A DNA stretch of 64,000 bases from an uncultured SAR324 cluster bacterium (GTDB taxonomy: Bacteria; SAR324; NAC60-12), in assembly GCA_902564345.1 (NCBI GenBank), contig CACFAY010000002.1, positions 7,858-71,857 on the forward strand. Reading direction: 5' to 3'. Numbering within the stretch: position 1 is the stretch's first letter; each line of letters begins with the position of its first letter. Positions 18,571-30,493 of the stretch are shown here, piece after piece. Made by a program: the position numbers and the translations under genes. The notes beneath the pieces are model-generated. The model had not been told where the DNA came from. It did not search any database and saw nothing but the letters and a program-made list of their open reading frames with translations.

Positions 18571-20529
18571 CTAATTTTCTAAATCAAATATTTTTCCTGC
18601 AACACGGATATTATCTTTACGAATTGTAAATTTTTGGGTATCAAAATACTCCAACAAATCAATTGCATATTTTCTTGAAACTTTTATTAATTCTTTAAAC
18701 TGGATAACATTTATATCTGGGTTTTTCTCAAAAAATTCCCGTAGGATTGTCAAAATTCTTTGAATTTGTTCTGGCTTGTAGTATAAATCCTCAGATATAC
18801 GTACAAGTTTTTTGGTATGAGTGGCGAATTTAAGCAATTCTATTCCATCCTTCTCATACACCCCCATTTCTTCTAGTAATCTGGTTTTTCGCATTGGTTG
18901 AAATCCACCATTTTTGATGATTTGAAGACACTTTACCAAACTTTCTTGAAGGATTTGAGAAATTTTTACCTGATGATATTCCAGAAAAAAATACTTACCC
19001 TTATTTAATATAATGCCTGAATCACACAAATATATTAACAAATTTTCTATTTCTTTTTCTGTAAAAATCAAAGACATTTTCCCTGATAGCTCAGCATGTG
19101 TAATTCCTTCGCGTTCTGGAAATTTTTGATGATGATTTTTTAAAACTTTGCTAATAAATTTTCCAATTCGCTTTATATGATCTATGTGCAAATAGCGGCC
19201 TGAGACCGAGTCTATACAAAGAACCTGACCTTTTTCTTGCAGGATCTGTAAAATTTTTAAACTATCTTTTTCTGAAAGACCTGTACGAACCTGAAATTCT
19301 GAATGAAAAACTCCTCGAACTGACCGCAAATATATTACTTCTTCAGAGCGTACATATTCATCACCATCCATCAATCGCCCGAGCCTCACTGAAAGATCCT
19401 GCTGCATTCTTCGGGATTTACTTGGAGAAGGGTCAATTATAATTCCTCCTCCAATGGTGTTCATTGGCGAGAAACTTCTTATGATAAATCTGTCACCGTA
19501 TTTGCCACTTAAAATTCTTTCAGCACGAAACTGAACCATTACAGTTTCTCCTGGCAACAAAGATTTTCCTTCCAAAAGTATAATCCTGCCTATAAGCTCC
19601 TGAGTACCAAGATGAAGTCTTACTCGTGTCCTGTTTTTCAAAGGAGTTGAAGCATCTTTCAATAAAGACAATGATGCATTTATCATATATCCAGAAAGCA
19701 ATGATTCAGGATCTGCCAGCTGATTACCACGGAATACTTCTTCCTTGGTAATTCCGGTTAAATTAAGTGCAACCCTTTGCCCTGCTTTAACCTCTTTTAC
19801 CTCAGTTCCATGAGACTGCATTCCTCTAATGCGGATTTCACGGACCTGCGGATACTGAACAAGCCTCCGGTTATGGCTTAAAAACCCCGTCAATACAGTT
19901 CCAGTTACAACTGTTCCAAAACCTTTTAATGTGAAAGAACGGTCAACATACAGTCTAAAAGGCTTTTCTATTTCTGGATTAACAATTTTTTTTGCAAGTT
20001 TTGCAATTTCATCACGAAGTTTCTTCAAGCCTTCACCTGTTAGTGCTGAAACAGTAATTACTGGGGCGGATTCCATAAAAGTTCCCTCAAGTAAAGTAAA
20101 AACTTCCTCTTTGCATATTTCAAGAATTTCTCTGTCTTCAAGCAGATCTATTCGTGTGAGGGCGACAATGCCAGATTTAATATTTAAAAGATTGCATATA
20201 TTCACATGTTCTCTGGTTTGCGGCATAACGCCTTCATCTGCGGCCACCACTAGTAAAACAGCATCCATTCCTGTAGCCCCTGCTAGCATATTGTGAACAA
20301 ATTTTTCGTGACCTGGGACGTCAACTATGGCTATGGTATTACCATCTTCGTCTTCATAATGAGCAAATCCTAAGTCAATGGTTATTCCGCGCATTTTTTC
20401 TTCAGCAAAACGATCAGTATCAACTCCTGTAAGAGCTTTTACTAATGAAGTTTTTCCATGATCGATATGACCGCTAGTACCTATTACGAATGGATTTGAA
20501 GATGGAATTTCTTCTTTGACACCTGACAT
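18571..20529 (-). CDS. selB: Selenocysteine-specific translation elongation factor SelB
   Basis: 652 aa. [48 protein letters not shown] and TRID G-domain motifs, plus the long C-terminal extension (winged-helix region) that distinguishes SelB from EF-Tu. Confidence 0.9.
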
Positions 20530-25062: not shown

Positions 25063-26172
25063 ATGAGAATAACTGTATTGAGAGTTCAAAAACTTCTGAC
25101 TGCCTTGTTAAGCCTGTGGATTTTTTTAATCCCCTTGGCAAATGCCTCAGAACCTGCCTTTGTGAGAGAAAGTCTGCGAGCCCGTGGAATGGGCAATGCT
25201 TTTACAGCGGTTGCGAATGATGAAATGCTATTTTTTTATAACCCTGCAGGGTTACGATCAGTTATTTATAACATTTATGAGATCGTTAGTTTTAATTTTA
25301 CAGTAAATGAAAACACTCTTAGTATGAGTAATTCTAGTAACAGCAGCTCTACCCTAGGGAGTCTATCGGGGAAAAAACTTTATGTTGAGTACAATGTTGG
25401 TCTATTGAGTCATATTAATTCAAGATTTGGATGGTCATTATTTCAAAATACATTGATTGACATTCAGGTAAGGAATCCAGTTTTTCCATATTTGGAAACA
25501 AGATCATTTGTGCAGGCTGGTCTCGCGGGTGGGATGGCATGGAGTTTTCTTGACTATCAGCTTGATGTTGGACTTGGTGCCAAGCTTGTTCAAAGAGCTG
25601 GAATAGACACAAAATTCCACGTGTTTGACGAGGCAATTATTGAACTCACGGAAGAAAATAAATATACCAAACTTGCAAATAAATTTGAGAATAAAACCGC
25701 TATTGCCCCTGATGCCGGGATAGTATATCACTTTGACGGAGTACACAACCTGTATCCAAAAGTTGCAATAAGTCTGCAAAATATAGGTGGTCTAGACTTC
25801 AATAATGCGGGAGAAGTACCTATGACAATGAACTTAGGAGTTAGCACTGAATCTGAACTTGGGGGTTTTGATTTAATACTTGCCGCAGATTATCTAGACT
25901 TAACCGATGGACAAAACCTGGTTTCTACAGGGAATTCAATCACTGAAAGAAACATTAAGTTTGGAGCTGAAATTGGCTGGAAAAAGTTATTTAATGGACA
26001 TCATCTTTTTTCTATTAGGGCTGGAAGAAATGGGCCATATAATAGTGCAGGATGGACCCTGAACTTATTTGGTTTTAAAATTGATGTTGCAAAATACGCT
26101 CAAGAAATTGGTGGCTACTCTGGTGAAATGATGGACCAAAGGACCAGTCTTCAAATTTCAACGATTTTTTAG
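25063..26172 (+). CDS. Outer-membrane beta-barrel protein (resembles PorV / TraF_2 / FadL-like barrels)
   Basis: Signal peptide ending LANA/SEP. N-terminal MGNAFTAVANDEMLFFYNPAGL motif. Gly/aromatic-rich sequence with an aromatic C-terminus ...LQISTIF, typical of BAM substrates. Confidence 0.65.
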   Translation: MRITVLRVQKLLTALLSLWIFLIPLANASEPAFVRESLRARGMGNAFTAVANDEMLFFYNPAGLRSVIYNIYEIVSFNFTVNENTLSMSNSSNSSSTLGSLSGKKLYVEYNVGLLSHINSRFGWSLFQNTLIDIQVRNPVFPYLETRSFVQAGLAGGMAWSFLDYQLDVGLGAKLVQRAGIDTKFHVFDEAIIELTEENKYTKLANKFENKTAIAPDAGIVYHFDGVHNLYPKVAISLQNIGGLDFNNAGEVPMTMNLGVSTESELGGFDLILAADYLDLTDGQNLVSTGNSITERNIKFGAEIGWKKLFNGHHLFSIRAGRNGPYNSAGWTLNLFGFKIDVAKYAQEIGGYSGEMMDQRTSLQISTIF

Positions 26173-26200: not shown

Positions 26201-27784
26201 ATGTCTTATAGTTCACTCTTTATTTTAGCAGTAATTTTAATCTGTTTTAGTGGATGCACAACTCAGGGTAGATTGACTTATCTGAAATTCGAAAAAAGCG
26301 ACAACTATCAAGATTTAAACTCCTCTATGGAGAAACTAAAAAATCAGTATGACAGCTCTATTCAAAATCAACGGAGTGCTTTAAGAGAGATACGATATAT
26401 TTCAAAGCATATGAAGGAGCCGGGCAAGCGTGAAATGGCACTGAGTGCTTTGACATTTTTTACATTCATGAGTGACGACGGAGATATTCGAGACAAAAGT
26501 CTTTCACGACTTAATAATGTGCTAGATGAACCTGAGTGGCCAAAACATTTAAAATTAAACATAATTGACAGCATTGTTGATCTTGTTACAGGCAGATTGG
26601 GTTTCCAAGAAAAACATGATGGAATGATGATGATTTTCGGTGTGGCCCCAGAAGTACGCGAAGATGCTTTAATGTACCTGCTTAACAAATTTGAAGGACT
26701 TGAACCGCAACTTCAGTACCATACTGTAAGTTCATTTCTCAGACTATTACTTACAAAGCCAACCTTGGTAAACTGTCCGGAGAATATTTGCGACGAAGAT
26801 ATCAGAAAAAATCAGGAAGAATGGGATCTTGGAGTAGAAATAAAAGCTAGTATACCTGATAACGCAGATCCCAAAGCAGTTGAAGCAGGAGCATATGGTC
26901 CTTTGACCAAACGTGAACCGCTTGAAGAACGGGAAGAGTGGAATGAAGAAATGGACGAACTCAAATTGATACTTTGGGAATGGATTGAAGATGCCCTTGA
27001 TGATCAAGATGTTTCTTATCTGATTCAAGGTCGATTGATTAGATTTGCAGGAGAAATAGAGCTTTTCTCACTACAAGAGGAAACGTCAAACGAGTTTATT
27101 GAACAAATATCTGAATGGGCAGAGAATGAGGATATTTCAGTTGATTTAAGAAAATTGCTTGGTGCCTCAAGGGAAAAGGTGAAAATTTACGGGTTCCCTT
27201 CAACAAAATCACCTCAGCTATCTGAAAAAGCTTTTGAAGGAATAAAAAAAAGACCCATAGATTTTTTGGAAACCCACATAGACGCAATTTTGCATCAACA
27301 GTTTGAACGTCAGAAAAGTGGCTTTGATCCGGGTGAACCTGATGCTCTAGGCCTGGCTTTTACTTCGTTCAATGAAACGGATGAAGGAGATCTAAGGAGA
27401 GAAATAATCCTTGAAAATGTAACTACAGCATTGCAAAAAGGATTGCTGGGAGACATTTCGTATATAGCAGAACGCGCCTTGAAATCAATTGAAAATACTC
27501 GTTCTGATGTAGACCTAGAACCTTTATTGAATCTTGTCAGTGCTTTGTATCCTTCACTGAAAGCACAAAAACGAAGTCCCAAGCCATTATTCGAAACTTT
27601 GTTAGAAAAAGTGGAGTCAGCCGAAACACTATTTGAGCGTAGATTATATCTCAATGCAATTCTTGCAGGGGCAACAGTTTTTCCGATGGAGACTAACCTA
27701 ATCCTAGCAAGTACTAGCGACCAGGACGTAGTTACAAGTCACCAAATTAATTCAGTAATACAGAAATTAGATGAAAATTTTTAA
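26201..27784 (+). CDS. Hypothetical lipoprotein (527 aa), acidic, helical-repeat-like
   Basis: Signal peptide with lipobox-like ICFSG/C. Starts 28 nt after the OMP stop. No family recognised and no haem motif. Confidence 0.6.
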   Translation: MSYSSLFILAVILICFSGCTTQGRLTYLKFEKSDNYQDLNSSMEKLKNQYDSSIQNQRSALREIRYISKHMKEPGKREMALSALTFFTFMSDDGDIRDKSLSRLNNVLDEPEWPKHLKLNIIDSIVDLVTGRLGFQEKHDGMMMIFGVAPEVREDALMYLLNKFEGLEPQLQYHTVSSFLRLLLTKPTLVNCPENICDEDIRKNQEEWDLGVEIKASIPDNADPKAVEAGAYGPLTKREPLEEREEWNEEMDELKLILWEWIEDALDDQDVSYLIQGRLIRFAGEIELFSLQEETSNEFIEQISEWAENEDISVDLRKLLGASREKVKIYGFPSTKSPQLSEKAFEGIKKRPIDFLETHIDAILHQQFERQKSGFDPGEPDALGLAFTSFNETDEGDLRREIILENVTTALQKGLLGDISYIAERALKSIENTRSDVDLEPLLNLVSALYPSLKAQKRSPKPLFETLLEKVESAETLFERRLYLNAILAGATVFPMETNLILASTSDQDVVTSHQINSVIQKLDENF

Positions 27785-27834: not shown

Positions 27835-29139
27835 ATGAATTCCATTATCAAAATATTAACCTTTTTTATAATGCTTTTGACATTATTTTCCTGTGCCGAC
27901 ACACAGAATTCTGGGCAAAGTTGCGAGGTCAAGCTTGATGAGCAAAAGTATCAATCTGTTGCAGAAAACACCAATTGCTCAGATTATGAAAGGGGCAGTG
28001 GCTACTTGGGACAAGCTGGCGTATCTTTCAGTAACTTTCTCCAAACTGGAGCTGCAGACAATATGACTAAAACTCTGGGAATTGAAAAACTAAGCTCTCC
28101 CACAGACTACACAACAGGCAATAGGGGTTACATAACAAATGCACTATGTTTAATTGGTGCAAATTCATTCGTAACATCGAGCCGATGCAATGGAAGTTCA
28201 AGGACGCGAACCACTGATGAACTTGAAATATCAATGTTTGCCAATATAGCTGATTTTCTCTATCTAAACTATGGTATTCTTGATAATGATACCGACGGTA
28301 CAATTACCTCAGAAGAAAGCGCAGCTTTCACTAAACTAAAGACGGAAGGAATAAGTGTCGCTGGATTGGGCACAGGGCTTTCTGCATATAATCGATACGA
28401 AGTTGTAGCAGGTAGCTCAAATTATATCGCAAATCAGGATCTTTCTAAATGTGTTGCATATGATGGAAACTACACAGACGACCCATCAAGTGGAGATTCA
28501 ACATGTGCAACACTCCAAGCTTCTGGTAGCGTTACTGAGATAAGACCTATCTACAAATTGGACTCCATGGAGGATATTACAGCTGACGGAGATCTGCTGA
28601 CTTTAGTTTCAATGGTAAGCGAACTTACGATGATTTCTACTGCTCTTTCTTCAGATTTTGAAGAGCTTGGAATAAGCTCTGATAACAGTATAAGAAAAAG
28701 TCTTACTGAAGCACTCGACAAAATAGATAATGGAGCAAAAGATAATAATCCTACGGCTGACCAAACATGCTTAGCAGTGATTTTATTTGATGTCATGTTT
28801 TTACTTGTTCAAAACGCCTCAGACAACAGCACTACTTCAACAGAGTTAAAAAGTGGAAACTTGATCAGCACATCAGATTTGTTAACTGCTGTAGACAATA
28901 CCCTTAGTCTTTACCCATCTGATGCAATTGAGGCTGCACTTGGATCACTTCCGATTCAATCTGCCAGAATTGTTTACGCAACAGACAGTCCGGCCACAAC
29001 ATACACTGATTCATACGAATCCGCAGAAAACTCATTATATTCAGCAATAGCCAACACACGCAGCCTTGGCACGGAAGACAGTGAAAAAAGTGATGGGAAA
29101 GTAACATTCCGAGAATTAATTTGTGTTGCAGAAAACTAA
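27835..29139 (+). CDS. Hypothetical lipoprotein (434 aa) with a canonical EF-hand Ca-binding loop
   Basis: Lipobox LTLFS/C. DNDTDGTITSEE at 28282-28317 fits the 12-residue EF-hand loop at every constrained position. S/T/D-rich. Confidence 0.6.
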   Translation: MNSIIKILTFFIMLLTLFSCADTQNSGQSCEVKLDEQKYQSVAENTNCSDYERGSGYLGQAGVSFSNFLQTGAADNMTKTLGIEKLSSPTDYTTGNRGYITNALCLIGANSFVTSSRCNGSSRTRTTDELEISMFANIADFLYLNYGILDNDTDGTITSEESAAFTKLKTEGISVAGLGTGLSAYNRYEVVAGSSNYIANQDLSKCVAYDGNYTDDPSSGDSTCATLQASGSVTEIRPIYKLDSMEDITADGDLLTLVSMVSELTMISTALSSDFEELGISSDNSIRKSLTEALDKIDNGAKDNNPTADQTCLAVILFDVMFLLVQNASDNSTTSTELKSGNLISTSDLLTAVDNTLSLYPSDAIEAALGSLPIQSARIVYATDSPATTYTDSYESAENSLYSAIANTRSLGTEDSEKSDGKVTFRELICVAEN

Positions 29140-29140
29140 T

Positions 29141-30493
29141 ATGCAATTGATTGTCGCATTTACTTTCATGAGTTTTGTGATTTTTCCAACATTTACGTTT
29201 GCACAAAATCCAATTTTGTTTTTTTCAGGTGACTTACGGGGAGAAATAAAACCATGCGGTTGTGCAGAAGAAGGCGACATGGGAGGTCTCTTACGAAGAT
29301 TGACTTATATTAAACAGAACAATTCAGTTAATAGGATTATTTATTTTGATCTAGGTAATAATTTCCCTGTACCCTCACAGCAGGGCGATCTTAAAATACC
29401 GCTGATTCATTCCGCACTAGAAAAAATGAATCCGGAAGTTGTTCTGGTTGGTCCTAATGAATGGCAAAACGGATTGCATTGGCTTGATTCAAAAGTCCCA
29501 TATCTTCTTAGCAATCAAAGCAAAAAACTTAATTTTTTGAATTTAAAAATTATCAATCATGAAAACCACCAAATAATAGTACTTGGTTATTTATCACCAA
29601 CTCTCGTTTATCAGAATAAGAATGATTCTCCAATTATATTCCCGATTAATCAGGAATTATTAACAAGTTGGAGTGACAAAATTCAAAAAAATATAGCTCA
29701 GTTTCGAATACTATTATTTCGAGGGAATGAACACGAATTAAATTTATTTGAAAAGTCAAACATGTTTGATCTTATTGTTGCAGGAAGCAACAATAATGAT
29801 GAGCTAAATCAAGTTTTGAAAATGGAGGTGGACACTAGAGATATTCCCATGATACCAACCAAAGGACAGGGGATCTTATCAGTGGAGTTGGATGTAAATG
29901 AAAAGATTATTCTGGCTAACCAAGAAAACGATTCGGGGAGTTTATCTGTTTCTTGGCTAGGAAGAAATATAGAAGATGATCCTGAACTTTTAGAATCATT
30001 CATGAGTTATGATGACGCTGTTAAAAAATTATTTTTCAGAAATTTGGAACTAAAGAAAGAGCATTTGAAAGACTCTCCGTTTATTGGTAATCAAGTTTGC
30101 GCTGCTTGCCATCCTAAAAGCATGGACATTTGGAAAAAGAGTCGACATGCAAACGCTTTTGCCACACTAGAAAAACTAGGTAAGCATTTTGATCCTGAAT
30201 GCCTAGAATGTCATGTGGTCGGCCTAAAACCATGGACCACAACAGAAAGTTCTTCAGAGGCAATAAGGAAATTTGAGGGAAAAAGAGGATTCCTTAGTAT
30301 GGAATTAACACCACATTTAGCGAATGTGCAGTGTGAAAACTGTCACGGACCTGCTTTAGATCACTTAGCCAATAGTAAAATTAAACCAGCTATGCACAAT
30401 CCTGATTCAGTTTGTGTCGAGTGTCATCAAGGAAGTCACTCTCCATTATTTGACTATAAAAAATACTGGCAAAAGATAAAACATGGACCATAA
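29141..30493 (+). CDS. Secreted two-domain protein: degenerate metallophosphoesterase/5'-nucleotidase-like N-domain with PCGC motif + C-terminal tetrahaem c-type cytochrome module (c554/NrfB-like spacing)
   Basis: The ATG at 29141 lies 1 nt after the upstream stop, and the signal peptide ends TFTFA/QN. Four CXXCH motifs: CAACH 30098-30112, CLECH 30200-30214, CENCH 30332-30346 and CVECH 30413-30427. The N-domain blocks FFSGDLRGE, GGLLRRLTYI, FDLGNN and VGPNEW parallel the DxHG, GG.AR.AT.I, GD and GNHE blocks of 5'-nucleotidases. Confidence 0.8.
   Translation: MQLIVAFTFMSFVIFPTFTFAQNPILFFSGDLRGEIKPCGCAEEGDMGGLLRRLTYIKQNNSVNRIIYFDLGNNFPVPSQQGDLKIPLIHSALEKMNPEVVLVGPNEWQNGLHWLDSKVPYLLSNQSKKLNFLNLKIINHENHQIIVLGYLSPTLVYQNKNDSPIIFPINQELLTSWSDKIQKNIAQFRILLFRGNEHELNLFEKSNMFDLIVAGSNNNDELNQVLKMEVDTRDIPMIPTKGQGILSVELDVNEKIILANQENDSGSLSVSWLGRNIEDDPELLESFMSYDDAVKKLFFRNLELKKEHLKDSPFIGNQVCAACHPKSMDIWKKSRHANAFATLEKLGKHFDPECLECHVVGLKPWTTTESSSEAIRKFEGKRGFLSMELTPHLANVQCENCHGPALDHLANSKIKPAMHNPDSVCVECHQGSHSPLFDYKKYWQKIKHGP

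Follow-up and report, generated by a model that had tools for sequence, protein, structure and literature searches.

We examined a gene encoding a 450-residue secreted protein in DNA from an uncultured SAR324 cluster bacterium (contig CACFAY010000002.1); the whole 64,000-nucleotide stretch that was analysed is referred to here as the window. The protein very probably carries a redox-active cysteine pair, in some relatives a cysteine/selenocysteine (Cys/Sec) pair, on a dead 5'-nucleotidase scaffold that is wired to four haems. More tentatively, it may be a soluble, haem-linked enzyme that generates disulfides for partners of the DsbA type (a thiol(selenol):haem oxidoreductase), a reading to which we assign a probability of roughly 0.3 to 0.4. 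The protein is not of a new kind, its family being already catalogued: it is widespread and has figured in selenoprotein listings since 2008 without an assigned function. New in our analysis are the operon linkage of the gene to DsbA, its complementarity with DsbA oxidases among SAR324 genomes, and the parallel between its Cys-Gly-Cys (CGC) motif and that of MauE. The DsbA linkage and the MauE precedent together provide a functional hypothesis open to direct testing.

Loss of the metal site in a 5'-nucleotidase-type domain

A first-pass annotation of this DNA, made from the sequence alone, had described the N-terminal part of the protein as a degenerate phosphoesterase-like domain and had set that fold beforehand as a test of its proposal. 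The test came out in its favor. An AlphaFold2 model from 52 homologues (mean predicted local distance difference test score (pLDDT) of 81, predicted template modelling score (pTM) of 0.77) superposed in Foldseek on the N-terminal domains of CD73, snake-venom and bacterial 5'-nucleotidases, UshA and SoxB over approximately 315 columns with a probability of 1.0, and with E-values of 3.6e-15 for CD73, 1.3e-11 for SoxB and 1e-11 for UshA. PDB 5'-nucleotidases were also found by sequence (E 1.5e-9) with a profile built from 78 diverse members of the family that are 26-58% identical to the query. Pfam searches of the protein at E-values up to 1 returned no match to Metallophos (PF00149) or to the 5'-nucleotidase C-domain (PF02872, 5_nucleotid_C).

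Profile alignments to solved 5'-nucleotidases place GDLRG at NDLHA (the DxH block), DLGNN at DAGD and GPNEW at GNHEF, and so confirm the earlier assignment of FFSGDLRGE, FDLGNN and VGPNEW to the DxHG, GD and GNHE blocks. Only one of the seven metal and catalytic positions (D, H, D, N, H, H, H) is kept, namely D31. The other six are occupied by R33, N73, P105, N106, R194 and N217, which bears out the replacement of these residues noted in the first pass and extends it to two further His positions (R194 and N217). This loss is family-wide, since in the 78 sequences the R33 column is Arg in 62 and the N73 column is Asn in 65. R194 itself is not kept across the family (the column is Ser in 48 of the 78), and the remaining metal-site columns are variable. 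Because the metal site has been lost throughout the family, the N-domain appears to be a remodelled domain rather than the product of a decaying gene, and the 5'-nucleotidase-type phosphoesterase site is predicted to be dead in all members.

The similarity to 5'-nucleotidases, UshA, CD73 and SoxB extends over the fold of the N-domain, the order of its blocks, the GGxxR motif and the presence of a long helix between the domains. However, the protein differs from all of these in the near-complete loss of metal and catalytic residues, in the gain of a Cys/Sec pair in the β1-α1 loop, and in having a tetrahaem module instead of the C-terminal substrate-binding domain. A long helix between the two domains is established 5'-nucleotidase architecture. 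Since the helix of residues 281-311 sits where these enzymes have their inter-domain helix, the tetrahaem module seems to take the place of the nucleotide-binding C-domain.

The first-pass annotation also drew an analogy to SoxB, which did not hold up. The protein does not match the SoxB model (TIGR04486, cutoff 550 bits), its metal ligands are absent, and the neighbours of 72 loci examined across the family include no sox, dsr, apr or arsenic genes. N-domains from the core clade of the family (see below) match the SoxB model at 1e-29, under its cutoff. A separate and much closer SoxB-like gene is present on another contig of the genome (C69:948-2558; TIGR04486 422 bits, model positions 103-554), and the source organism thus probably has its own thiosulfohydrolase-type enzyme.

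The cysteine pair, its family and the haem module

The only non-haem cysteines of the protein are C39 and C41, the other eight being haem-binding. The first pass had singled out this PCGC motif, directly after the first block, and its location is as described. We found PCGC in 110 of 120 close homologues, and the remaining 10 are fragments or start-call artefacts. Six homologues that begin with 'MGGL...' were considered as Sec forms cut short at a TGA codon, but were rejected as start-codon artefacts since their upstream DNA encodes PCGC. Within the N-domain, the invariant columns of the 78 diverse members are C39, G40, C41, G48, G49, R52 and G72; outside it, the haem motifs and His 336, 408 and 448 are invariant, while His433 is present in 71 of the 78. 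Conservation of the pair, which the first pass had also set as a test, thus came out in its favor, and the His losses are likewise family-wide. The Cys/Sec pair is the sole family-specific invariant feature of the N-domain. It is located in the β1-α1 loop, which links the DxH block to the invariant start of the GGxxR helix. The model has its lowest N-domain confidence here (pLDDT 68-69, compared to 84 and 92 for the flanking blocks), as expected if this were a mobile shuttle loop.

An exhaustive search of representative sequences yielded 234 clusters at 50% identity (E ≤ 1e-30), and 510 loci were confirmed when species-representative genomes were scanned. The Cys pair was read at the codon level in the best 80 of these 510. 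Among those 80, CGC was encoded in 54, and 21 had an in-frame TGA (Sec) codon exactly at the second Cys. All 21 TGA codons were checked, and 17-25 nucleotides beyond most of them there is a G/C-rich hairpin whose small loop contains G. These hairpins resemble bacterial selenocysteine insertion sequence (SECIS) elements, with modest fold z-scores. A maximum-likelihood tree of 82 sequences resolved three groups. One holds the window protein and comprises all-Cys sequences from SAR324, Lambdaproteobacteria, Oligoflexales and Nitrospinota; another is gammaproteobacterial, also all Cys; and the last, from Acidobacteriota, Eisenbacteria, Desulfobacterota and Nitrospirota, contains 21 Sec and 14 Cys forms. 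Approximately six Sec/Cys switches are needed on this tree, at least two of which are forced by well-supported branches, including sister Blastocatellia clades. Because Cys and Sec have been exchanged repeatedly at this position, the second Cys is likely a catalytic redox residue. This interchange strongly backs the earlier suggestion of a redox enzyme rather than a phosphatase. In some relatives the motif reads PCGCH or PCGUH (L088, L090, L101, L111, L115 and L117), resembling a contracted CXCH haem motif that is absent in the window protein.

The gene was found in 66 of 88 SAR324 genomes, and all 66 copies are uninterrupted, with no TGA form. The window also contains selB (18571-20529, minus strand), approximately 9 kb from the gene, with a TIGR00475 score of 377 bits and SelB winged-helix domains. 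Neither selA nor selD was found in the source metagenome-assembled genome (MAG), which is 52% complete. Since selB is present in the window, the source organism can make selenoproteins. Many DsbA-family frames with exactly one in-frame TGA occur in SAR324 genomes (G003, G007, G020, G027 and others), and these frames are probable Sec-containing DsbA-like selenoproteins that appear to be common across the phylum.

The family is represented in NCBIfam by the equivalog NF041198 (UshA_like_PCGU, 'UshA-like (seleno)protein'). The window protein scores 186.9 bits against this model (E 5.7e-55), short of the cutoff of 275. Positions 22-244 and 357-519 of the 519-position profile are matched in one frame, covering both halves of the protein, and its PCGC falls in the same column as the TGA-encoded Sec of the 21 loci, in agreement with the PCG[U/C] motif of the model. 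When ten relatives were scored, the core clade alone passed (348-380 bits, including L095, L103 and L119). This clade comprises Acidobacteriota, Desulfatiglans and one Thermoplasmata MAG. Outside it, other Sec forms scored 239-273 bits and Cys forms 200-243. By these scores, the protein is a divergent Cys-form member of the wider UshA-like family that lies outside the curated equivalog. A 'COG0737 UshA-like' selenoprotein with a CxU motif was reported from Global Ocean Sampling (GOS) data, with 76 Sec and 92 Cys forms (Zhang & Gladyshev 2008, PMC2398784). Two reviews repeat the listing and name NF041198 and a second family, NF049981 (PMC9312934, PMC13188914); all three publications catalogue the UshA-like family without assigning a function. 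The protein has the same layout as NF041198 members: a signal peptide, a metal-less N-domain, PCG[U/C] followed by GGxxR, a linker and four CXXCH motifs. It differs from the core of that family in having Cys for Sec, in belonging to a separate all-Cys clade, in its GDLRG block, in two Arg at former His positions, and in its SAR324-specific operon with an outer-membrane barrel and lipoproteins.

The four C-terminal CXXCH motifs reported in the first pass (at residues 320, 354, 398 and 425) belong to a module that scores 47.9 bits against Pfam Cytochrome_C554 (PF13435), well over the cutoff of 20.8; this is the sole Pfam match of the protein. The family profile matches Nitrosomonas cytochrome c554 (PDB 1bvb) at 1e-21. 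The likeness to cytochrome c554 (PF13435; 1bvb/1ft5) and to modules of OcwA (6i5b) and MtrC lies in how the first three CXXCH motifs are spaced and flanked and in the conserved distal His. Four additional conserved His (336, 408, 433 and 448) are candidate distal ligands for the four haems, and it is probable from this count that all four haems are bis-His and of the electron-transfer type. Cytochrome c554, in contrast, has one five-coordinate haem, and here the cytochrome is the C-terminal module of a larger enzyme. The best PDB match of the family profile is 6i5b; as a relative of the whole protein it was rejected, because this structure is OcwA of Thermincola and is matched through the haem modules only.

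Some relatives dispense with the haem module. In Acidobacteriota, secreted proteins of approximately 280-320 residues consist of the N-domain alone, with PCGU (L125, G160:C124, and L126, G181:C1) or PCGC (L127, G104:C16) and without any CXXCH. Like the second UshA-like family, they share the degenerate 5'-nucleotidase N-domain and a Cys/Sec site after block I, but unlike the window protein they have no haem module. The second family is itself distinct (262 residues, with a CxxU motif), and the window protein matches it at 5.9e-5 only. Since N-domain-only PCGU and PCGC relatives exist without CXXCH, the Cys/Sec domain would be the autonomous, catalytic unit, and the tetrahaem part an add-on that supplies or removes electrons. 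The same relatives make it unlikely that CGC is a haem ligand or a fifth haem site.

A possible role in disulfide generation and its alternatives

Among 53 same-strand open reading frames (ORFs) adjoining the gene, the recurring families are DsbA and DciA, with six each, the latter in a Blastocatellia-centred group; one thioredoxin, two mono-haem cytochromes c and one cytochrome b561 were also present. DsbA is the only functionally suggestive family that recurs among them. The DsbA neighbours, which score above the Pfam cutoff, were seen at 6 of 72 loci, and each of the three major clades has some. They encode secreted proteins with a CPHC, CGSC, CHTC or CSHC active site, and either overlap the gene or are separated from it by 14-23 bp. 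Four of the six genomes with such an operonic pair show no DsbB, VKOR or MauE. Of the other two, one has DsbB and MauE, and the other is a near-complete Pseudohongiella with DsbB. At one gammaproteobacterial locus (L076, in MAG G214, in which DsbB, VKOR and MauE were not detected), the gene overlaps by 13 bp that of a 402-residue DsbA-domain protein with a weak peptidyl-prolyl isomerase (PPIase)-like region. At two other gammaproteobacterial loci (L063:9372-9695 and L065:9385-9705), a small mono-haem cytochrome c of about 107 residues, with CxxCH at residue 54, is encoded directly downstream and is a candidate electron acceptor or donor.

All 88 SAR324 genomes encode DsbA-family proteins; DsbB was found in 6, VKOR in 60 and MauE, above cutoff, in 14. 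The gene is carried by 20 of the 21 SAR324 genomes that lack all three oxidases, approximately a dozen of these being at least 90% complete, compared to 44 of the 66 others. In Acidobacteriota the NF041198 profile also matches ordinary 5'-nucleotidases and c554-like cytochromes, so that presence calls there are unreliable, and a co-occurrence replicate in that phylum was dropped.

The protein does not itself match DsbB (PF02600), VKOR (PF07884) or MauE (PF07291); it is soluble and has a signal peptide, and any resemblance is functional only. MauE has been shown experimentally to replace DsbB, with a CGC in a flexible loop on the periplasmic side as the active site (2026 preprint). In mitochondria, electrons pass from the CPC of Mia40 to Erv1 and on to cytochrome c (PMC4307334). 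The likeness to MauE, DsbB and VKOR, to Mia40-Erv1-cytochrome c and to the shuttle disulfide of Erv2 would be mechanistic and not one of homology: a redox-active CXC (CGC in MauE) carried by a flexible loop in the periplasm, a respiration-linked sink for the electrons and, in some genomes, an adjoining DsbA-type partner. The window protein is, however, soluble rather than membrane-embedded, and its sink would be covalent haems instead of quinone or flavin adenine dinucleotide (FAD).

We propose a periplasmic two-module redox enzyme, composed of a gutted 5'-nucleotidase N-domain and a c554-type tetrahaem cytochrome. The CGC pair, which would have to come close to a haem, may cycle between a dithiol and a disulfide that closes an 11-membered ring (in Sec forms, a selenylsulfide), and may exchange with periplasmic protein thiols, most likely those of DsbA-type thioredoxin-fold proteins. 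The two electrons would then pass singly along the haems and on to soluble cytochromes c and the respiratory chain. Such an enzyme would correspond to DsbB, VKOR or MauE in a soluble form linked to haems, or to the mitochondrial relay. A further step, which we regard as doubtful, is that these proteins form a fourth, soluble class of bacterial disulfide-generating enzymes in which DsbA is re-oxidised by the CGC/CGU loop and electrons go directly to c-type haems and not to quinone. If the DsbA-oxidase reading is true, it would fill part of the gap posed by bacteria in which DsbA occurs without DsbB, VKOR or MauE, and periplasmic disulfide chemistry may connect to the respiratory chain through an UshA-like tetrahaem protein. 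It would also provide a bacterial analogue of the Mia40 relay derived from a gutted 5'-nucleotidase fold, and a clear example of an enzyme fold reused for wholly different chemistry.

Several observations weigh against this role. No close precedent is known for direct electron transfer between a disulfide/dithiol and a bis-His haem without flavin, quinone or an iron-sulfur centre, and the known haem enzymes that form S-S bonds (SoxAX and TsdA) use a Cys-ligated haem. The haem-free N-domain homologues indicate that the haem module is not obligatory for the chemistry. The DsbA linkage is confined to the 6 of 72 loci and occurs at none in the window's own clade. The SAR324 complementarity is nominal (Fisher p of about 0.01), is not corrected for phylogeny and comes from MAGs. 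Finally, VKOR accompanies the gene in 16 of 17 genomes of the window's genus, and DsbB does so in Motiliproteus and Pseudohongiella. A simple replacement of DsbB or VKOR by the gene was therefore rejected, leaving partial complementarity, and the DsbA-oxidase idea is supported as a lead but is not established.

The electrons may instead flow in the opposite direction, from periplasmic cytochromes through the haems, so as to reduce the CGC pair in its disulfide, selenylsulfide or sulfenate state. This would make the protein a reductase or peroxidase of the periplasm that repairs oxidised protein thiols, keeps a DsbA- or thioredoxin-like partner reduced, or reduces peroxide, for example. Sec is typical of reductive or peroxidatic enzymes, the Sec forms are found mostly in anaerobe-rich lineages (Desulfatiglans, Thermodesulfobacteriota and Acidobacteriota), and the partner at one locus is a thioredoxin (CGPC). 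In addition, c554-type haems can be low-potential, and co-occurrence with VKOR or DsbB poses no problem for a reductase. However, the linked partners are mostly of the DsbA type with an oxidising CPHC, the gene is enriched in genomes without known DsbA oxidases, and the existence of Sec-containing DsbA-like proteins of the oxidant type means that Sec leaves the direction unfixed. On balance, we consider a reductase or peroxidase unlikely. A small chance of about the same order attaches to a pair that acts on inorganic sulfur, selenium or a metalloid (polysulfide, thiosulfate, sulfite, selenite or arsenite) while the haems carry the electrons, a reading that corresponds to the sulfur-handling idea of the first pass. 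The fold is common to SoxB, whose model the core-clade N-domains match below cutoff; sulfur oxidisers are numerous among the hosts (Chromatiales, Ectothiorhodospiraceae, Thiohalomonadales, Sedimenticola and SAR324); and R33 and R194, which replace metal-binding His in the SAR324 clade, could bind an oxyanion. However, R194 is not a family-wide residue, sox, dsr, apr and arsenic genes are missing from the 72 neighbourhoods, where contexts are housekeeping and not catabolic, Acidobacteriota, Eisenbacteria and Myxococcota commonly carry members of the family as well, and the genome has its much closer SoxB-like gene elsewhere.

It is quite improbable that CGC is something other than a redox couple, such as a metal-binding site, an axial haem ligand or the shortened attachment site of a fifth haem. 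In its favor, metals can be chelated by CxC motifs, sulfur cytochromes with His/Cys-ligated haems are known, and the PCGCH and PCGUH relatives do resemble a contracted CXCH. However, the window protein has PCGCA, with no His, and the four conserved candidate distal His already match the four haems. The retention of PCG[U/C] in N-domain-only homologues indicates that the motif works haem-free, and catalytic redox residues typically show such repeated Sec/Cys switching. That the protein is still a phosphoesterase or nucleotidase, with an incidental cytochrome fusion, is close to refuted. The 5'-nucleotidase fold and one metal ligand, D31, survive, but the six other metal and catalytic positions are replaced here and family-wide, Pfam detects neither a Metallophos nor a 5'-nucleotidase C-domain, and the nucleotide-binding C-domain is absent.

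Gene layout and genomic neighbourhood

The features of the gene and of the cluster preceding it are listed in Table 1. An alternative in-frame GTG start is present at 29123, but the N-termini of homologues (MQxIVA...) favor the ATG. In the AlphaFold2 model, residues 2-14 of the signal-peptide region form a helix.

Table 1. Positions in the window of the gene, its motifs and the upstream cluster. Reference residue numbers (His220, His243) are those of CD73.
Feature	Position	Strand	Basis or remark
Outer-membrane barrel, 369 residues, first gene of SAR324-specific cluster	25063..26172	+	NF033709 34.7 bits, cutoff 90
Lipoprotein, 527 residues, same cluster	26201..27784	+	
Lipoprotein, 434 residues, 8 Cys beyond lipobox	27835..29139	+	Lineage-specific operon partner
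Whole gene, UshA-like CGC/tetrahaem protein, 450 residues, secreted	29141..30493	+	ATG at 29141
Signal peptide, residues 1-21, ...TFTFA/QN	29141..29203	+	Read from sequence; putative cleavage site
Metal-less 5'-nucleotidase-type N-domain, residues ~22-280	29204..29980	+	Foldseek and profile matches
Block I GDLRG, residues 30-34, at DxHG position	29228..29242	+	Aligned to 3ivd NDLHA
PCGC, residues 38-41, candidate redox Cys pair	29252..29263	+	Conservation, Sec exchange
GGLLR, residues 48-52, GGxxR helix-start motif common to 5'-nucleotidases, invariant	29282..29296	+	
DLGNN, residues 70-74, at GD motif	29348..29362	+	Bridging Asp replaced by Asn73
GPNEW, residues 104-108, at GNHE	29450..29464	+	Ligand Asn replaced by Pro105, catalytic His by Asn106
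Arg194 at metal-ligand His220 position (CD73 numbering)	29720..29722	+	Alignment
Asn217 at metal-ligand His243 position (CD73 numbering)	29789..29791	+	Alignment
Linker helix, residues 281-311 (31 residues)	29981..30073	+	DSSP on AlphaFold2 model
Tetrahaem cytochrome c554-type module, residues 312-450	30074..30490	+	Pfam PF13435 2.7e-12; PDB 1bvb 1e-21
CXXCH 1, CAACH, residues 320-324	30098..30112	+	
CXXCH 2, CLECH, residues 354-358	30200..30214	+	
CXXCH 3, CENCH, residues 398-402	30332..30346	+	
CXXCH 4, CVECH, residues 425-429	30413..30427	+	

The barrel protein encoded at the start of the upstream cluster is weakly PorV/PorQ-like, has no Cys and ends in Phe. Neither of the two lipoproteins matched a Pfam or NCBIfam family, and the stop codon of the second lies 1 nucleotide before the ATG of the gene. 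This barrel-lipoprotein order is kept in relatives (L041 and L013-L030) within the window's SAR324 family, down to approximately 46-50% identity to the protein. We rejected the operon as a context for the UshA-like family as a whole, as it was not detected outside that SAR324 family. No neighbour is conserved family-wide; after the gene itself, the largest cluster of neighbours consists of response regulators, at 13 of 81 loci. Downstream of the gene in the window, on the opposite strand, are tyrA, secF, secD and yajC. Housekeeping neighbourhoods recur across the family (tyrA, secDF, yajC, plsX and dciA), and these fit a role in envelope maintenance.

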